A stretch of 64,000 nucleotides of DNA from an uncultured Christensenella sp. (GCA_948468595.1 CAOKIU010000002.1:369-64368); one strand, 5' to 3'; positions 452-18,400 are shown, counted from the first letter of the stretch. A program made the numbers and translations. The notes: generated by a model from the sequence alone, not told the origin.

Positions 452-1297
452 TCACATCAGCGCTCTTAGGTTGCTCAGGGAGAGGCGCACGGCTTCCTGA
501 CAGGGCTCCATGCCCTCAAACTCAATGGCCACCGCGCCGTCGTAGCCCGCGCGGCGCAGGATGCGCAGCGCCGCCTCCACCGGCACCACGCCGTGCCCGA
601 TGATTGTGCCGCGCAGATATGCGCCCGCGCGCGTCTCAAACCAACCCTGGCCCGGATTGCGGGCGGTGCAGGGCTTATAGAAGAAGTCCTTGGCGTGAAC
701 GTGGAAGGCGTGGGGCGCCATGATGCCCACAGCCTTGGCGGGGTCCTCGTCCGCGCAGAGGAAGTTTCCCATGTCCACCAGCGCGCCGAAGTTCTCATGG
801 TCCACGCGCCCGATGAGCGCCTCCACCCGCGCGCTATCCTGCACAAAGGTGCCATGGTTTTCCACCATTGTGGGAATGCCCAGGGTCTGGGCGTACTCCG
901 TCACCGCGCGGCAGCCCTCGGCAATGCGGGGCAGCGCCTGCTCAAAGGTGCGCGCGGGGCCCTTCTTATCAAGGCCCCAAGCCGCGTCGTGGCGGAAGGT
1001 CTTGGCCCCCAGGCGAACGGCGTTTTGCAGCTCGTCCTTGACGCGCTCGATCTCCGCCTTGAGGTCGTTGTTCAGAAAGTCCGCCGCGACGGCGTAATTG
1101 CTCACGGTCAGTCCCGCGTCCTTGGCCTGTGCGCCCAGCTTATCGCACATCTGGGGCAGGGGATCGTCTCCCAGCAGCACCGCAAAGTCGATGGCCTCAA
1201 ATCCCCTGCGCGCCGCCGCGTCCACAATGTCGTAGGTGCTCATGCGCCCCGCGCTGACTGCCTGATGGAAACTGTAACTGCTCACGCCGATCTTCAT
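452..1297 (-). CDS. Sugar phosphate isomerase/epimerase (xylose-isomerase-like TIM barrel)
   Basis: Metal-ligand motifs VENHG, DMGN, HVHAKD and IEFEG; GGAGG RBS. Confidence 0.85.
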   Translation of the reverse strand: MKIGVSSYSFHQAVSAGRMSTYDIVDAAARRGFEAIDFAVLLGDDPLPQMCDKLGAQAKDAGLTVSNYAVAADFLNNDLKAEIERVKDELQNAVRLGAKTFRHDAAWGLDKKGPARTFEQALPRIAEGCRAVTEYAQTLGIPTMVENHGTFVQDSARVEALIGRVDHENFGALVDMGNFLCADEDPAKAVGIMAPHAFHVHAKDFFYKPCTARNPGQGWFETRAGAYLRGTIIGHGVVPVEAALRILRRAGYDGAVAIEFEGMEPCQEAVRLSLSNLRALM

Positions 1298-1333
1298 GTC
1301 CGTTTCCTCCTATCCTATTTCACTCTGCCCGCC

Positions 1334-3118
1334 TCACGGCGCGCCGCCCTCCGCCATGCGCTGGGCGAGCTGCTCGGCCAGGATGCGGATGTGCTCGCGC
1401 GCCTCCTGCTGCAAGAGCAGCGCTTCATCCCTTGCGGGCACGGCATCCCCCATCAGCTGAACAAATTGACTGACCTTCAGTCCCAGCGCCTCCTGCATCT
1501 GCGCGTCGCTGCCGCGCGGGCTCACCAAATAGTAGCAAAGCACGCTGTCCTTCTGGCCCATGCGATGGGCGCGATCCTCGGCCTGGGTGTGAACGGCGGG
1601 CGACCAGTCCAATTCGCCGAAAACCACGCAGGTAGCGCGCTGCAAGTTGAGGCCCGCGGCCGCGCGCATGGAGATGCAGCACAGGTCGGTCTTGCCGCTC
1701 ATAAAGGCGTTCACGGCGCGGTCCTTCTGCGCGGTGTTTTCCCGCCCGGTGATAAAGACGGGCCGCGCGGCGGAGAGCGCCTCCCGATAGGCATCCATCA
1801 CCTGGTGATGATGGGCAAAGAGCAGCACCTTCTCCCCGCCCTCCAAGAGCGCGCGCACAAAGGCCGCCACATACGGCGCCTTGGCCACGCCCGTGGCCTG
1901 GCGCATGTGTTGGCAGATCTCGTCCTCAATTCGCGTGCGGTCAAAGTTGGTGCGCGCGTCATACAGGCGGCGGAGCGCCTCCATGGCGGGCTGCATCAGC
2001 TGCCGGTATACGTCGTCGTCCGCATCGATTTCCTGTACCAGTCGGCGCTTGGGCGGCAATTGGTCGAGCACCGCGTCCTTGGTGCGGCGCAGCATGTACC
2101 CCTCCTCCCGAAGCATCTCGCCCAGCACGTCGGGCTTGGCCACGATGTTGTTGCCGTAGCCGTAGCACCACTCGCGCGTAAAGCTCTCCCAGTCGCCCAG
2201 CGCATGGAAATCCAGGATGTTGATCACGTTCCAAATCTCCCCGCCGCGGTTGTAGATGGGCGTGCCCGAAAGGCCAAAGACGCGCGGCGCACGCTCGGCA
2301 AGCAGGGAGGCGGCGCTGTACTTTTCCGTGCCGCTGTGGCGCAGTTCCTGAATCTCGTCGTAGATCACCGCGGCAAAGTCCGCTTTGGCCAGCGTTTCCT
2401 TCCAGCCGCGCAGCAACAAATAGTGCACAATGTAGATCTGCGCCGGCGGCAGGGCGTAGGGCTTGAGTCCCTTGAGCACGTGCACCGTGGGCGCGCTGCC
2501 ATCCGCGTTCTTGAGGAAGTGTGCAATTTCGCGCTGCCAGTTGGTCATCAGGTGCGATGGCACCACCAGCATCAACGGATAGGCCTGCAGCTCCGCCACC
2601 GCCGCCAGCGCCTGCACGGTCTTGCCCAGGCCCATCTCGTCGGCCAGCAGGGCGCGGGGCGTGTTGACCAGATAGGCCGCGCCCTCGCGCTGAAAGGGCA
2701 TCAGCTTCCCCGAAAAATAGGCCGGAGAGGGGTCCAGCGCCTGCGGCGCGCTGCGCGCCCGCTCCCGGGAAAGCGCGAAATCCCGCGCGCCGCGCAGGGC
2801 TTGTTCCCACCGCACGGCATCGCTGGGCCGCACGCGGAGCGGGTAGCGCAGCATCAGCCAATTCAGGTCCCCCGCGTTGCGGCGGTTGGCGGTGAAGCGC
2901 GCCACGCCGCGGCCCTTGCCATCGCAGCCGGGGAACAGGCGCTTGGCCATCTGGCATACGATGGGCTCGCCCTTGATCACCCAGGAGCGGGTGCGCTTGT
3001 TGTAGCTCAGTTCGCCGTAAACGCGGCGGCCGCCCTCGCCGTCCCTTTGCAGGTAAGGCGGCAGCAGAAGCTCCTCGGGCAGGTCGGGCAGCTCGTCATA
3101 CGGATCGTATTCCGTCAT
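1334..3118 (-). CDS. SNF2-family ATPase/translocase, SMARCAL1/HARP-like
   Basis: Motifs LLADEMGLGKT, VVPSHL, DEIQ, LSGTPIYN, LRRTK, LLFAHH, AAAGLNLQ and QAEDRAHRMGQ. The start was moved to ATG 3118 (MTEYDPY), which overlaps the upstream stop (TGATG). Confidence 0.9.
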   Translation of the reverse strand: MTEYDPYDELPDLPEELLLPPYLQRDGEGGRRVYGELSYNKRTRSWVIKGEPIVCQMAKRLFPGCDGKGRGVARFTANRRNAGDLNWLMLRYPLRVRPSDAVRWEQALRGARDFALSRERARSAPQALDPSPAYFSGKLMPFQREGAAYLVNTPRALLADEMGLGKTVQALAAVAELQAYPLMLVVPSHLMTNWQREIAHFLKNADGSAPTVHVLKGLKPYALPPAQIYIVHYLLLRGWKETLAKADFAAVIYDEIQELRHSGTEKYSAASLLAERAPRVFGLSGTPIYNRGGEIWNVINILDFHALGDWESFTREWCYGYGNNIVAKPDVLGEMLREEGYMLRRTKDAVLDQLPPKRRLVQEIDADDDVYRQLMQPAMEALRRLYDARTNFDRTRIEDEICQHMRQATGVAKAPYVAAFVRALLEGGEKVLLFAHHHQVMDAYREALSAARPVFITGRENTAQKDRAVNAFMSGKTDLCCISMRAAAGLNLQRATCVVFGELDWSPAVHTQAEDRAHRMGQKDSVLCYYLVSPRGSDAQMQEALGLKVSQFVQLMGDAVPARDEALLLQQEAREHIRILAEQLAQRMAEGGAP

Positions 3119-3477
3119 CAGACCGCCACCCCCCACAGCCGGTTGAGCGCCACCACCGCGCAGGGCTTGCCCATGACGGTGCGGGGCAGGTCGGCCGTGC
3201 GCTCCACCACCAGAATCACCGCGCGCACCCCTTCCTGCGCGGCATAGCGGCGCAATTGCTCCAGCAGGCGTCCGCGCGGGGGCTTGCCGCGCTTGACCTC
3301 CACGGCTATGCCGCCCGCGCACAGGAAGTCCACCCGGCACCGCGGCGCCAGGCGCGCCTCCTTTTCAAAGGCGATTCCCTCCCTGCCCAGCGCCTCGCCC
3401 ACCAGGGCCTGCAATTGGTATTCGTCCGTCACCAACGGGATGCGCAGCGCCCCAAGAGCGGATATGATTTCCTCCAT
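3118..3477 (-). CDS. Small PD-(D/E)xK superfamily nuclease
   Basis: 119 aa with E...E(A)R...RVD...EVK...QLRRY, the restriction-like/RecB-NucS-type catalytic pattern. Coupled to the SNF2 gene. Confidence 0.7.
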   Translation of the reverse strand: MEEIISALGALRIPLVTDEYQLQALVGEALGREGIAFEKEARLAPRCRVDFLCAGGIAVEVKRGKPPRGRLLEQLRRYAAQEGVRAVILVVERTADLPRTVMGKPCAVVALNRLWGVAV

Positions 3478-3557
3478 GCCTTTTTCATCGCTCCTCTTTT
3501 CTTAGGCTCATTTTATCATAAAGCAGGCGCTTAGAACAGCCCAATTTCCCAAGCGAC

Positions 3558-3587
3558 GCACGTTTTTCGGAACGCACTCATAAGATG
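3558..3587 (+). promoter_or_regulatory. Putative SigK/SigE-type sporulation promoter
   Basis: GCAC-N17-CATAAGATG upstream of the LysM gene. Confidence 0.45.
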
Positions 3588-3620
3588 GTACAGAAAAACG
3601 CAGAGAGGAGCTGTTTCCCT

Positions 3621-4766
3621 TTGAAGAGAATCAAACCTACATATGGCGCCTACACAAAAGAGGATATGGACGCGCTCTACGGCACGCGGCCCGCGACCAG
3701 CACCCTGCAAACGGTGGAGTGCCCCGATGGCTACGAAGCCTATACCATCATGGCGGGCGATACCCTGCGCTCCATCGCCACGTCCCGCGGCATCACCGTG
3801 ACCGAACTGCTCTTCTACAATCCCTCGCTCAACCCTTATGGCTATAAGAGAGGGGATGTCATCTGCGTGCCGGCCAACTCCACCGCGGCGCCCCGCAACG
3901 CCGCCAGGACCGCCCCCGCCGAAGATGACGCCGCGCCCGCTGAGACGGAGGATGGCGCCGAATCCAACGGCGAAGGGACCATGCCCCTGCCCACGCCCTC
4001 CTTGCCTGGCGGCGACGACTCCACCACCCCGCCGACCGCCGAGCCCGACGAGGACATGCAGCCCACGCCCTCTCTGCCCGACAACACCCAAAACAACGAC
4101 ATCGACCAGCAGCCTGCCTCGCCCGACGAAGGTCCGCTGCCGCTGCCCACGCCCGCCTTGCCCTCCCCCTCTCAGCCCGCGGAGCCTGGCGAGGGGCCGG
4201 TGCCGCTGCCCACGCCTTCTGTGCCCTCCACGCCCGCCCTGCCGCCCACGCCGCGCTGCCCGAATGGAACACTGTATACCGTCCGTTCCGGCGACACGCT
4301 GCGCCTCATCGCCCAGCGGTTTGACGTCACGCTGGACGCCCTGATGGCCGCCAATCCCGGTCAGACCAACAGCCGCCTCATCATCGGGCAAAAGCTGTGC
4401 ATCCCCCAGCCCATTTGCGAGGCTTGCTGCCCGGCGGGCACGTCCTCCGTGCGCATTCAGTCCACCAACTTTGTGGACTATCTTGTGAACTATAACATCT
4501 CCTACGCGGCCCTTGCCGCCGCCAACCCCAACCTGGATCTCGATCGCCTGATCACGGGCCGGCAGATCTGCATTCCGCCCATCGGCTCCCGCGGCAACTG
4601 CTCGCAGGGCGTCGGCACCCAGGAGCTGGCCATCGATCTGACCGCGGCGGAGCTCGCCCAGCAGCTGCGCGTGACCATTGCGCAGCTGATGAAGTACAAC
4701 CCCAATTACACGCCCACGGACTTCCGCAGGGGCCGCATCATCTGCGTACCCCCGGCGCTGCGCTGA
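3621..4766 (+). CDS. Multi-LysM, Cys-rich, Pro-rich protein, probably spore coat/cortex associated
   Basis: Four LysM-like units (YTIMAGDTL..ICVP, YTVRSGDTL..LCIP, and two degenerate ones) and a Pro/acidic linker. In-frame TTG at 3621 follows GAGAGGAG. Confidence 0.8.
   Translation: MKRIKPTYGAYTKEDMDALYGTRPATSTLQTVECPDGYEAYTIMAGDTLRSIATSRGITVTELLFYNPSLNPYGYKRGDVICVPANSTAAPRNAARTAPAEDDAAPAETEDGAESNGEGTMPLPTPSLPGGDDSTTPPTAEPDEDMQPTPSLPDNTQNNDIDQQPASPDEGPLPLPTPALPSPSQPAEPGEGPVPLPTPSVPSTPALPPTPRCPNGTLYTVRSGDTLRLIAQRFDVTLDALMAANPGQTNSRLIIGQKLCIPQPICEACCPAGTSSVRIQSTNFVDYLVNYNISYAALAAANPNLDLDRLITGRQICIPPIGSRGNCSQGVGTQELAIDLTAAELAQQLRVTIAQLMKYNPNYTPTDFRRGRIICVPPALR
3973..4227 (+). repeat. Intragenic repeat encoding EG(P/T)xPLPTP(S/A)(L/V)P, four copies
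   Basis: Recurring GCCCACGCC-cored units near 3973, 4050, 4128 and 4191; the second is degenerate. Confidence 0.7.
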
Positions 4767-4852
4767 GCCGCGCTCCCCGCGACCTAGGCATGTAGGCTAA
4801 ACTGTGCTATAATCAAGTCACCTCACAATCACGAGAGGGGGCTTGATTTTTT

Positions 4853-5530
4853 ATGGGAACGCGCGCAACAAGGGAGACGCTCCCCCTGCCGCCGCAGGTA
4901 AAGGAGGGGGCGCTAACGAGCGGAGACCTGCTCGCCCTCATGGGGGAAGAGGACTTCGCGGAAGCGGAGGCGGAGGGCCTGTCATTCACCGGGCAAGACG
5001 CCTCCTATGTCTCAGGCCGAGGGGTGGAGATGCGCGGCTGCGCGTTTAGCGGCTGTTCGCTGCGCGGCGCGCGCCTCAAGGGCGTCAGCTTTACCGACGT
5101 GGTCTTTCAAAACTGCGACTTTTCCAACGCAAAGCTGCAAGAGCTCTACATGCAGCGCGTGCGCTTTATCGGCTGCAAGCTGGTGGGTACGGACATGGTG
5201 GAGGCGCGCCTGCGCAACGTCGTGATGGAGGACTGCGTGCTGCGCATGGTCAACCTCACGGGCAGCAAGTTGGACACCGTGCGCCTTCTCTCCTGCGACG
5301 CGGCGGAGGCGGCGCTGCAAATGATCTCCGAGCTCAAGCGCGTGACGCTGACGGACTGCGACCTAACCCGCGCGGAGCTGATGAACACCCGCCTTTCCGG
5401 ACTGGATCTGACCACCTGCCGCATCGACGGGCTGATGGTCACCGGCGCATTGGAGCTGCGCGGGGCGATCGTCACGCCCATGCAGGCCCTGTCGCTGTCC
5501 ACCCTGCTGGGCATCCGCATCAAGGAATAG
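4853..5530 (+). CDS. Pentapeptide repeat protein
   Basis: Tandem A(D/N)LXX-like pentapeptides (CDFSN AKLQE, CKLVG TDMVE ARLRN). TGCTATAAT extended -10 near 4805. Confidence 0.85.
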   Translation: MGTRATRETLPLPPQVKEGALTSGDLLALMGEEDFAEAEAEGLSFTGQDASYVSGRGVEMRGCAFSGCSLRGARLKGVSFTDVVFQNCDFSNAKLQELYMQRVRFIGCKLVGTDMVEARLRNVVMEDCVLRMVNLTGSKLDTVRLLSCDAAEAALQMISELKRVTLTDCDLTRAELMNTRLSGLDLTTCRIDGLMVTGALELRGAIVTPMQALSLSTLLGIRIKE

Positions 5531-15475: not shown

Positions 15476-18400
15476 TTACAGCCTCTCCATCTCCCGCAGC
15501 AGCTGCTCCACCGCGTCCACGGCCTTCTCCATCAACACCTCGGTCTCGCCCTTTTCATCGAGCACCAGCGCCGTGCTGGTTCCCACCCGTTGCAGCGCCA
15601 GGCGCTGCTTTTTCATCCGCCCCAGCGCGGTGACGAGCTTCCCCGCGTCCACCTTAGCATAGGGGGAAAAGCGCATTAGGATTCTCCCGCCGCGCATGAA
15701 GACCATCTCCACGCCCAGGCGCGCGCATAGCGACTTGAGCAGCGCGATCCAAAGCAAGTGCTCCGCCTCCACGGGCACGTCGCCAAAGCGGTCAATGAGC
15801 TCATCCATGGCATCGCGCCAATCCTCGCGGTTCTCAATGGCCGCAATGCGCTTGTAGACCTCCATGCGCACCTGGTCGCCCTGCACAAACTCGATGGGCA
15901 AGTAGGCGTCCACGCGCAGCTCCACCTTGGTTTCGATTTCGGTATCCAAGCCCGCCTGGCCGCGCAGCTCCGCCACCGTCTCCTCCATCAATTTGCAGTA
16001 AAGGTCGTATCCCACGTCCGCAAGCTGGCCGTGTTGCTGGCTGCCCAGCAGATTGCCCGCCCCGCGGATCTCCAAGTCGCGCATGGCGATTTTAAATCCC
16101 GAGCCGAACTGCGTGAACTCGCGTATGGCCGAGAGGCGCTTTTCCGCGACCTCGGTGAGCACCTTGTTGGGCGGCACCGTGAGGTAGCAGTACGCCAGGC
16201 GGTTGGAGCGCCCCACGCGCCCCCGCAACTGGTAGAGCTGCGACAGGCCGAAGCGGTCCGCGTCGCAAACGATCATGGTGTTGGCCGCGGGCACGTCCAG
16301 GCCGGACTCGATGATGGTGGAGCAGACCAGCACGTCAAACTTGCCCTCGTAGAAGTCGAGCATGACGTCCTCCAGGCTGTTCTCCCGCATCTGCCCATGG
16401 CCCACGGCCACGCGCGCCTCGGGCACCAGGCGGCAGATGTGCTCGTAAAACCGCTCGATGCTGCGCACGCGGTTGTAGAGGATGTAGACCTGCCCCTGGC
16501 GGGAAAGCTCGCGCAGGATGGCGTCCCTGAGCAGCGCGTCGGAGAGCTCCAGCACATAGGTCTGCACGGGGTACCTTTCCTCGGGCGGCGTCTCCAACAG
16601 GGACATGTCGCGGATGCCCACCATTGACATGTGCAGCGTGCGCGGAATGGGCGTGGCCGAAAGGGTGAGCACGTCCACGGTGTTCTTGAGCTGCTTGAGC
16701 TTTTCCTTATGCGCCACGCCAAAGCGCTGCTCCTCATCGACAATGACCAGCCCCAGGTCCTTAAACCGCACGTCCTTGCCCAGCAGGCGGTGCGTGCCGA
16801 TGAGAATATCCACCTTCCCCTCCTTTAGCTGCTCCAACACCTGCTTTTGCTCCTGCGGCGTGCGGAACCGGGAGAGCATCTCAATGCGCACGGGGAAGTG
16901 CTTGAACCGCTTTTTCACCGATTGAAAGTGCTGTTGGGCGAGCACCGTGGTGGGCACCAGGAAGGCCACCTGCTTGGAGTCCATCACGGCCTTGAACGCC
17001 GCGCGCACCGCCACCTCGGTCTTTCCGTACCCCACGTCGCCGCAGAGCAGGCGGTCCATGGGGTAGGGTTTTTGCATGTCCTCCTTGATCTCTTGAATGC
17101 ATTGGAGCTGGTCTGGCGTCTCCTCATAGGGGAAGTCGTCCTCAAAGTCCCGCTGCCAGGGCGTATCCTGGGAAAAAGCAAATCCGGGCGTCATCTGCCG
17201 GGCCGCATAGAGCTTGATCAGCTCGTCGGCCATTTCGCGGATCTCGCTTTTGACGCGCGCCTTGCTGCGGCTCCACTCCGCGCCCCCCAGCTTGTTGAGC
17301 TTGGGGGTCTTGTTCTCCATGCCGATGTACTTTTGCACGCGGTCCAGTTGATCGGTGGGAACGTAGAGCGCGTCGCTGCCCTGGTATTGAATGTGCAGGT
17401 AGTCGCGCGTCTTGCCCTCCATGGTCATGCGCACCGTTCCCGTATATACGCCCACGCCGTGACTCTCATGTACGACATAATCCCCAATTTTCAGGTCGGT
17501 AAAGGCCTGTATCTTCTGCCCCGCCTTGTGCCTGCGGCGCGCCGCGCGCTGCCGGGTGGTGCCAAACAAATCTGCGTCGCCCAAAAACACCGCCCCGGCC
17601 TGAGGCAGCTCGAATCCCCGCGTAAGGCCAATGGGCAGCACCGCCATGCGCCCCGGGGAGAGCGCGCGCGGCTCCTCCTCAAACTGGACGGGCAGCCCCT
17701 TATCCCTCAGCGTCTCGGCCAGCCGCTCGCCGCGCGCCCGGCCGCCCGAGAGCAGCGCGACCGCCATTCCCTTATTGCGGTAGTCCTCCATCTGCTCCGC
17801 CAACAGCGCGTTCTGCCCCTGAAAATCCGGCGCCTGGCGCGTCTCCAAGTTGCACACGGCGGAGAGTTTCATCTCCCCAAGACCCACGGAGAGCAGGCCC
17901 AGAATCACGCTCTTGCGCTTGTGCAGGATGCGGGAGAAGTTGTCCCAGGTATCCATCAGCGCCTGTTGGCCGGGGAAGCCCTCCCCGCGCTCCAGCGCGC
18001 TCTCCAACTGCGCGGCAAACTCCAGCCCCATGTTGATCGCGCGCTCGCGCAGGCGCCCAATTTCGTCCAGGATCACAAGCTGCGGGTCGAAATAATCGCT
18101 AAAGTAGGTGGTTTTTTCATATAAATAGGGAATGAAATTCTCCAGCGCCTCGGTGCGCCGGCCCTCCCTTAGGCTCTCTACGGTCTCGCGCCGCTTGGAG
18201 CCCGCCGCGCCCGTCACGGCAATCTCGCCGCCCTCCTCCTGGCTCAGCCAGGGGGCTTCCTTGTATTGCGCGCCGCCCTTGGGCGCGCCCCTTAGGCTCT
18301 CTAACTCCTTTTCCAGCAGCGCCGCCGCGCGCCGCATTTCCTGCCCGCCGGCCACGGCCTCGGTGGCGGGGTAGATTTCGCAGGGCCCGTCCACAGGGTT

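Follow-up and report, generated by a model that had tools for sequence, protein, structure and literature searches.

We analysed a 64,000-nucleotide stretch of DNA from an uncultured Christensenella sp. (GCA_948468595.1 CAOKIU010000002.1:369-64368; hereafter the window), in which two overlapping minus-strand genes encode a small protein with a predicted PD-(D/E)xK nuclease fold and an SNF2-family ATPase. The nuclease-fold gene (P0002; 3118..3477, minus strand), delimited from the list of open reading frames (ORFs) and its translation, encodes 119 amino acids (aa) and ends in a TGA stop at 3118-3120. The ATPase gene (P0001; 1334..3118, minus strand), recognised through Pfam and phrog_62, encodes 594 aa from its ATG and ends in a stop at 1334-1336. 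Stop and start meet in TGATG (3116..3120, minus strand), read directly from the DNA (...GTC TGA TGA CGG...), where the two codons share one base; this overlap suggests that the genes may be translationally coupled. The original prediction, made from the sequence alone, had placed a 119-aa ORF in overlap with a 594-aa SNF2 ATPase through TGATG, and both the ORFs and the DNA bear this out. The motifs it quoted are also present, namely E40..R48.D50..E60-V-K62..Q74..R77-Y78 in the small protein, and KVLLFAHHHQVMD, GLNLQRATCVVFGELDWSP, QAEDRAHRMGQ and the Walker B sequence DEIQ (254-257) in the ATPase.

An alternative SNF2 reading of 668 aa, from a GTG at 3340, exists, but homologues begin at the overlap instead. 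The G+C content (GC) of the region is 0.63-0.69, with the pair matching its surroundings, and long antisense ORFs are frequent in this GC-rich DNA, as exemplified by an 884-aa ORF on the plus strand. Comparison with six relatives gave ratios of nonsynonymous to synonymous substitution rates (dN/dS) of 0.10-0.28 for the SNF2 gene and 0.23-0.55 for the nuclease gene, values that are rough given that dS is near saturation. Strong homologues together with low dN/dS indicate that the minus-strand pair represents genuine genes rather than chance ORFs.

The intergenic region upstream of the pair (3478..3584, minus strand) contains GAGGAG 13 nucleotides 5′ of the ATG and a TGATAAAAT stretch, and could possibly hold a promoter of the pair's own. 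A scan of 1200-3700 for a consensus sigma-70 promoter yielded no site, and the terminator-like matches near the pair in a scan of the same interval were discounted, all of them lying inside genes. Nineteen public sequencing runs carry the sequence, none of them recorded as RNA.

The small nuclease-fold protein and the SNF2 motor

Searches with the small protein against Pfam (E up to 1), NCBIfam and PADLOC (E up to 1) returned nothing meaningful, and the protein or its profile produced chance-level rows only against the sequences of solved structures (E 0.046 and 0.55). A match was obtained to phrog_5928 (E 4.2e-18), a phage family of unknown function. Within a set of 5.8 billion proteins we identified 135 relatives, mostly from uncultured Clostridia, and a profile search of 1.84 billion cluster representatives recovered 3,499 proteins at E <=0.001 (2,215 at E <=1e-10), each of these members being a cluster at 50% identity and nearly all measuring 115-200 aa. 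This is a large family without a Pfam entry, and our literature search found no described function for it. A longer relative of 375 aa with ABC-transporter domains, from the 5.8-billion-protein set, was set aside as probably a miscalled or chimeric gene.

Among 41 bacterial members, R12, E19, E40, P45, R48, D50, E60, K62, G64, Q74 and Y78 are invariant together with other positions, and E19, E40, R48, D50, E60, K62, Q74 and Y78 remain so in an alignment to which 19 viral members were added (35 sequences). The AlphaFold2 model of the small protein (predicted local distance difference test score, pLDDT, 91.4; predicted template modelling score, pTM, 0.86) has the order alpha-beta-beta-beta-alpha-beta (H19-32, E37-44, E47-53, E57-62, H68-79, E86-91), with D50 on the second strand and E60-x-K62 on the third. 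Foldseek matches to this model were weak (best E 4.7e-3) and comprised McrC, Bax1, OkrAI, SfsA, NucS and BglII, in a list that consists almost wholly of PD-(D/E)xK enzymes; a viral structure library likewise returned PD-(D/E)XK nucleases. A Foldseek-independent structural search (VIA) ranked AF1548 (Z 9.2), BglII (Z 8.8) and NucS (Z 8.4) highest, nearly all of its 50 listed rows being PD-(D/E)xK enzymes. From the modelled fold and the conserved residues, we conclude that the small protein is a putative minimal (~120 aa) PD-(D/E)xK nuclease carrying the full catalytic signature, and the earlier assignment to this superfamily is upheld by the predicted fold and by the conservation of D50, E60 and K62.

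The VRR-NUC family (PF08774) offers an obvious comparison, since the solved VRR_NUC domain 4qbn_B resembles the small-protein model at Z 5.7; the available part of one source describes VRR-NUC proteins as small PD-(D/E)xK nucleases of bacteria, eukaryotes and phages (PMC3424549). However, Pfam returned no match for the small protein, even at E values up to 1, and its fold agrees better with many other PD-(D/E)xK families. It constitutes a sequence family of its own, distinct from the Pfam-defined VRR-NUC.

In the larger protein, both lobes of an SNF2 motor score well above their Pfam cut-offs: lobe 1 spans residues 143-367 (2018..2692, minus strand; PF00176, E 3.8e-27, 95.6 bits against a cut-off of 24.9) and lobe 2, a Helicase_C domain, residues 423-521 (1556..1852, minus strand; PF00271, E 2.8e-12, 47.3 bits against 23.5). 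Across 37 full-length sequences, the Walker A residues G163-L-G-K-T167, motif II (D254-E255-I-Q257) and the motif VI residues Q512, E514, R516, R519 and G521 are invariant; we take these to be the elements named motif I (GxGKT), motif II (DExx) and motif VI (QxxxRxxRxGQ). The call of an SNF2 ATPase therefore stands, with both lobes recognised and the motifs intact. The best family match of the ATPase is phrog_62, labelled 'DNA helicase' (E 1.9e-92, residues 59-570), and approximately half of the members of its nearest language-model clusters are viral.

The closest solved chains to the whole ATPase are SRCAP, ISWI, Sth1, Ino80 and the Sulfolobus Rad54-like enzyme (1z63, E 9.7e-25), and those closest to lobe 2 alone are Sth1, Ino80, SRCAP and Snf2, of which Snf2, Sth1 and Ino80 are generic remodellers. 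RapA was not among the best 60 solved chains for either query, and the RapA NCBIfam model reached 36.2 bits, in two partial stretches, against a cut-off of 576, in agreement with the earlier statement that the motor is not of the RapA type. The likeness of the second lobe to SMARCAL1 proposed at the same time was not confirmed, with no SMARCAL1 ATPase chain among the matches listed.

These relatives raise the question of whether the SNF2 protein acts on protein-DNA complexes, by RapA-like removal of roadblocks or in a Rad54-like manner with a recombinase, with the small protein in a DNA-binding or regulatory role and not as a nuclease. Displacing proteins from DNA is what most characterised SNF2 enzymes do; the solved structures nearest by sequence are chromatin remodellers and the Rad54-like enzyme; and PD-(D/E)xK folds are sometimes non-catalytic. 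Nevertheless, every residue of the catalytic signature is conserved without exception in the bacterial and viral small proteins, which argues for an active nuclease; the RapA model scored far below its cut-off, and RapA was absent from the best 60 solved chains; and the phage neighbours of the pair, described below, belong to replication and recombination and not to transcription, although one prophage contig (L087) carries a sigma-factor gene. We consider this explanation quite improbable.

A second SNF2-like gene lies elsewhere in the same genome, outside the window (G000:C17:27531-28874, minus strand). It falls within a 1075-aa open frame and shares 32% identity with the window's ATPase over residues 124-556 of the latter.

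Linkage of the two genes in bacteria and phages

To describe the association between the two genes, we located relatives of the small gene in 306 genomes (one genome per species) and analysed the best 80 loci. In 73 of these the small gene is followed on the same strand by an SNF2 homologue. With start codons inferred, the SNF2 start overlaps the nuclease stop by 4 bases in 48 of these 73 loci and by 1 base in four; another 18 show spacings from -34 to +2459 bases, the largest (L074) accommodating an inserted 758-aa ORF, and one is unclear. The remaining two loci encode in-frame nuclease-SNF2 fusions, one of 752 aa at L075 and one of 721 aa. Three further fusions of the form nuclease-linker-SNF2, 743-760 aa long and with catalytic residues intact, were found in another family among 201 genomes of the order, having first been seen as open frames of 749-764 aa, and a 755-aa fusion (P0221) also appeared in the profile search of cluster representatives. 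No SNF2 gene was present in the DNA around seven of the 80 loci (L007, L011, L014, L023, L042, L070 and L071).

Viral sequences display the same arrangement. In all 27 IMG/VR loci the small gene is followed by the SNF2 gene, which abuts it in 24 and is separated from it by small inserts in three, and phrog_62 and phrog_5928 were both found for adjacent genes in each of the eight IMG/VR loci scanned. All seven phages examined carry a homologous small gene directly upstream of SNF2. In Ruegeria phage 45A6, Tunturiibacter phage Tunturi_5 and an uncultured 485-kb phage the pair was located by tblastn and coordinates, and for Paracoccus phage Pyei1, Arthrobacter phage ArV1, Pseudomonas phage LKA5 and Dolichospermum phage Dfl-JY45 the small genes were matched by hhalign (probabilities 99.1, 98.4, 98.9 and 95.5, respectively). 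Thermus phage MN1 encodes a more distant SNF2 protein without an N-terminal match and has no small gene upstream.

The nuclease-SNF2 pairing is near-obligate. Overlap, fusion and co-inheritance across phyla indicate that the two proteins work together, and they probably do so as a complex, in which they would bind physically. The original prediction of a coupled, adjacent pair is thereby confirmed, by 73 of 80 genome loci, 27 of 27 IMG/VR loci, seven of seven phages and five fusions. Its description of the pair as a split complex, suggestive of fission, was not supported: separate genes are the rule and fusion is the exception.

The phage homologues, including LKA5 gp05/gp06, ArV1 ORF077/076 and Pyei1 p08/p09, encode ATPases with ~35-37% identity over 87-95% of the window's ATPase, N-terminal domain included, and share its gene order and stop-start overlap. 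Their records label the proteins 'helicase', 'endonuclease', 'Cas4 family exonuclease', 'primosomal protein' or 'hypothetical', with no described function. At viral loci the neighbouring genes encode single-stranded DNA-binding protein (SSB), RusA-like and other Holliday-junction resolvases, DnaD/DnaC-like loaders and a sliding clamp, as well as DNA methyltransferases, ParB-like and MazG-like proteins; in annotated phages they encode the DNA polymerase III beta subunit, C5-cytosine methylases, an exonuclease, ribonucleotide reductase and a RusA-like resolvase. The phage setting of the pair is thus a replication and recombination module. Integrase and repressor genes adjoin the pair in phages 45A6 and Pyei1, reflecting a temperate context, and the pair also lies among replication genes in the large lytic-type genomes of Tunturi_5 (309 kb) and Dfl-JY45. 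In the accessible portion of an earlier study, SNF2-like helicases are listed among the replication genes near phage PolA (PMC6302109). The pair is a widespread phage replication-module pair, a connection that the original prediction had overlooked, and its copy in the window differs from those of phages in being chromosomal, in having housekeeping neighbours and in belonging to a separate bacterial clade.

Large DNA methyltransferase genes were observed within a few kb of the pair at six phage or viral loci (L081:3660-5627, L082:7710-9731, L085:1-1591, L084:1-761, L091:1095-2324 and L092:403-2922). They are annotated as C5-cytosine methyltransferases in three isolated phages, and the L092 copy is fused to another helicase.

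Chromosomal setting and inheritance

The neighbours of the pair in the window encode a sugar-isomerase-like TIM barrel, a LysM protein, a pentapeptide-repeat protein, a CPBP protease, an ArsR-type regulator and, judging from its position, what is probably a glycoside hydrolase; the neighbours scanned include no phage gene. In related genomes PBP1A lies upstream at 35 loci, and Nfo (deoxyribonuclease IV; 293.6 bits against a cut-off of 129.65) and a NUDIX-HAD fusion lie downstream at 23 and 30 loci, respectively. The common order is PBP1A - nuclease - SNF2 - (pentapeptide) - Nfo - NUDIX/HAD fusion, as at L012:8735-9565, L046:9606-10616, L046:3065-6001 and similar loci. The window itself lacks this repair-flavoured neighbourhood. 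Nfo was ruled out as a partner in the present genome, where it does not lie beside the pair and no copy above cut-off was found genome-wide.

At locus L014, the nuclease gene (4004-4354) is followed by a homologue of window positions 452-1297 (4598-5482) with no SNF2 gene between them, which suggests a clean loss of SNF2 from the same syntenic position.

A Qnr/MfpA-like pentapeptide-repeat gene occupies window positions 4853-5530 (plus strand), upstream of the pair at a distance of 1.4 kb. Clustering placed such genes at 19 loci, 15 downstream of SNF2 and four upstream, and tblastn detected them at 24 of the 80. Downstream copies share the strand of SNF2, and several overlap its stop. Homologues were present at none of 33 viral or phage loci and at none of the seven loci lacking SNF2. 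This association could reflect a functional link to a DNA-mimic protein or mere inherited synteny.

The small gene is patchily distributed, occurring in 16 of 201 genomes of the order, and is concentrated in two families, where it was found in six of seven other genomes of the window's own family and in six of eight of the second. To place these copies relative to those of viruses, we reconstructed a maximum-likelihood tree of 96 SNF2 sequences by a quick search, with six long-branched phage sequences as the root; 11 rows had been excluded for short hits or stops (L002, L003, L010, L038, L043, L045, L062, L068, L072, L076 and L105). The window and 61 genome rows form one clade (SH-aLRT 99; Shimodaira-Hasegawa-like approximate likelihood ratio test), below which successive IMG/VR clades branch. 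Two genome rows fall among the viral ones, L013 (Anaerospora) and L029.

Most simply, this topology can be read as a phage module captured once and then inherited vertically in gut Clostridia. The nested clade, the housekeeping synteny, purifying selection and near-universal presence in two families together support a single domestication. An earlier lean towards a resident role fits both this synteny and the lineage-wide conservation.

The phage affinity of both families, with roughly half of the ATPase's nearest clusters being viral, and the loss of SNF2 at seven of 80 loci would also be expected of an inert or decaying prophage remnant that has no function for the bacterium. Such a remnant is hard to reconcile with intact frames that retain all catalytic motifs, with dN/dS of 0.10-0.55, with a GC content matching the surroundings and the lack of phage genes found beside the pair in the window, or with a position conserved across genera and the near-universal presence of the small gene in the two families. 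We regard it as very improbable indeed, and return to the single-capture reading below.

Two individual copies merit separate description. The copy in Anaerospora hongkongensis (Negativicutes; L013) is identical to the IMG/VR prophage contig L087, and the pair lies there among SSB, sigma-factor, RusA-like and MazG-like genes; from this identity and these neighbours the copy is prophage-borne, unlike those of the Clostridia clade. The SNF2 gene of L030, labelled as a Phocaeicola dorei bin, is near-identical to those of the Clostridia metagenome-assembled genome loci L026, L037 and L047 (branch lengths 0.007-0.019), so this row is probably a binning error and not a Bacteroidota copy.

Accessory domain and candidate function

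N-terminal to the SNF2 core lies an accessory domain (approximately residues 20-125; 2744..3061, minus strand), delimited from an alignment of 34 sequences and an AlphaFold2 model. Pfam covers nothing in residues 1-140, in line with the earlier remark that the N-terminal domain lacks an assignment. Invariant positions in the 34 sequences are P20, Y22, G35, L37, W46, P52, R60, F62, P63, R70, F75, R80, W87, R91, P93 and W104; this richness in arginine and aromatic residues suits a predicted nucleic-acid-binding surface, and the domain probably recognises DNA structure. Its model (pLDDT 85.6, and >90 for residues 31-110) adopts the topology beta-beta-alpha-beta-alpha-alpha.

A Foldseek search of the PDB with this model gave nothing better than E 0.38. 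In a wide structural search, the top match was the N-terminal domain of T4 UvsW (1rif_B, Z 5.8; 2oca_A, Z 5.5), with a root-mean-square deviation of 2.2 over 63 residues within chain residues 1-87. Lower matches included the N-terminal domains of XPB (2fz4, Z 3.8; 5tnu, Z 3.6; 8ebt_A, Z 3.3) and also MotA (Z 3.7 and 3.4). All of these lie below Z 8, a range in which a match may mean only a common arrangement. The top matches are N-terminal accessory domains of motors for branched or damaged DNA, and we treat them as a lead. We detected no HARP domain with Pfam (E up to 1) or in the 50 structural matches listed.

Immediately before the accessory domain, P20-x-Y22 (within LPxYL, residues 20-23; window 3050-3061, minus strand) is invariant in bacterial and viral sequences, and in the fusions it comes after the linker. 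Speculatively, it may be a docking motif.

Three characterised arrangements resemble the pair in part. In T4 UvsW, an N-terminal alpha/beta accessory domain directly precedes a superfamily 2 (SF2) motor, as in the window's protein; the UvsW domain resembles the 'double wing' of MotA. To our knowledge, the UvsW motor lies outside the SNF2 family and UvsW has no dedicated nuclease partner. UvsW is a weak match but the best structural one, and it likewise operates in a setting of phage recombination and replication. Phage Snf2 helicases have been suggested to replace UvsW, according to the part of a published account available to us (PMC7824862). Archaeal XPB-Bax1 combines an SF2 motor, an N-terminal damage-recognition domain and a separately encoded nuclease, much as the pair is predicted to do, and the fold searches with the small protein retrieved Bax1 (6p4o_F, Foldseek E 1.6e-2; VIA Z 6.7 and 6.5). 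The motor families differ, with the NCBIfam XPB model reaching 18.7 bits against a cut-off of 610 and no sequence relationship apparent, and Bax1, with chains of 374-481 residues, is much larger than the small protein. SMARCAL1, ZRANB3 and HLTF likewise join an SNF2 motor to a substrate-recognition domain, and ZRANB3 is also nuclease-associated; however, the pair's ATPase has no detected HARP domain, and the nuclease fold differs, ZRANB3 carrying an HNH domain. By analogy, the pair may be a functional counterpart of UvsW (plus a resolvase), of XPB-Bax1, or of SMARCAL1 and ZRANB3.

Taken together, these results led us to propose, at what we judge to be an even chance, that the pair is a two-gene operon of phage origin, now resident in the chromosome, that encodes a translocase and a nuclease working as one machine on branched DNA. 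The SNF2 motor would be recruited through its accessory domain to branched or damaged structures, for instance stalled or collapsed forks, D-loops or recombination intermediates. ATP-driven translocation on double-stranded DNA would remodel the structure by fork regression, branch migration or strand re-annealing, and the bound PD-(D/E)xK nuclease would cut it. In phages the pair could serve recombination-dependent replication and fork rescue; the bacterial lineage could use it to process forks or damage in addition to RecG and RuvAB. What we infer in this scheme is that the proteins bind each other, which DNA they act on and how they divide the work. A more specific version is tentative and, in our estimate, somewhat doubtful: the pair would be a prokaryotic and phage counterpart of the SNF2 fork remodellers, in which a motor guided by a UvsW/XPB-like domain reverses or re-anneals forks and the nuclease cuts, captured once by gut Clostridia and kept as a near-universal chromosomal repair function.

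Helicase-nuclease pairs are also a common architecture of defence, and the motor might instead sense or track foreign DNA and activate or deliver the nuclease, in anti-phage or anti-plasmid defence or in superinfection exclusion by prophages. Models for such a role are Hachiman (HamAB), ZorD of Zorya and the type I and III restriction enzymes; Hachiman is presented as a nuclease-helicase heterodimer in the accessible portion of its description (PMC10925250). The pair resembles ZorD, HamAB, DpdE and DrmD in joining an SNF2/SF2 motor with a PD-(D/E)xK-type nuclease, and in PADLOC the ATPase scores best against ZorD (E 2.4e-46), DpdE and DrmD. Temperate phages and prophages carry the pair, in 45A6 and Pyei1, for example, beside integrase and repressor genes, a frequent site of exclusion genes, and its distribution in the order is patchy, as noted above.

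The PADLOC matches are nevertheless confined to the SNF2 core, with ATPase residues 125-537 aligning to positions 430-860 of the 908-position ZorD profile, and to the core only even in the fused form. NCBIfam scores are far below their cut-offs (ZorD, 76.7 bits against 1500; DpdE, 67.3 against 500; DrmD, 38-42 against 610-950), and the full-length ZorD architecture with a C-terminal Mrr-like nuclease was not found. For the small protein, PADLOC gave no match at E up to 1, to a HamA-type nuclease or to any other model. Among the seven neighbouring window ORFs scanned, PADLOC detected no ZorA, ZorB or ZorC, and the sole defence-model match was a generic helix-turn-helix (HTH) match to Csa3. The original prediction had proposed a PADLOC check and allowed that the pair might belong to an already described system; no described defence system matches it. 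Moreover, the phage pair lies among replication genes, also in large lytic-type genomes, and the bacterial copies show vertical inheritance, housekeeping synteny and a single clade, unlike the turnover of defence islands. A defence role, on any of these models, appears rather unlikely to us.

Returning to branched-DNA processing, both protein families are already catalogued in PHROGs and loosely annotated in phage genomes. The SNF2 fork remodellers SMARCAL1, ZRANB3 and HLTF are regarded as eukaryotic, and RecG, RuvAB and UvsW are credited with fork remodelling in bacteria and phages. The pair described here joins a compact SNF2 motor to a 120-aa nuclease, with overlap, fusion and co-inheritance linking the two. 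If the proposal is correct, the pair would be a new type of helicase-nuclease machine in phage replication, a small two-protein system in which SNF2 action on forks could be studied, and a clear-cut case of a bacterial lineage domesticating a phage replication module; if its role is defence instead, it would be a new defence system carried by phages themselves.

Several results weigh against branched-DNA processing by a captured phage module. The UvsW and XPB matches of the accessory domain are weak, at Z 5.8 and lower. The nuclease can persist alone, as at the seven loci without a nearby SNF2 gene. No LexA-type box (GAAC-N4-GTTC with <=2 mismatches, which we take to be the consensus) occurs in 3478-3584, in line with the absence of a LexA box noted in the original prediction, and the pattern's 22 matches in the window are below the chance mean of 32.75. 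In the window, the Nfo and NUDIX neighbours are missing, the downstream gene encoding a different TIM-barrel protein. The tree is rooted on long-branched phages and samples the best 80 of 306 loci. In the literature, supplements aside, we found no description of the pair or of its fusions, accessory domain or domestication. Finally, RecG (665.4 bits) and RuvB (476.4 bits) are both present in the genome above their cut-offs, so that a fork-remodelling role of the pair would be redundant or specialised.

The presence of these two proteins ruled out the pair as a replacement for RecG/RuvAB and marks it as an addition. A further RecG-like match was observed in the window at ~16022-17155 (G000:C2:16390-17523, minus strand), where a 1206-aa open frame reaches 389.5 bits with the RecG model, below its cut-off; this frame probably encodes Mfd.

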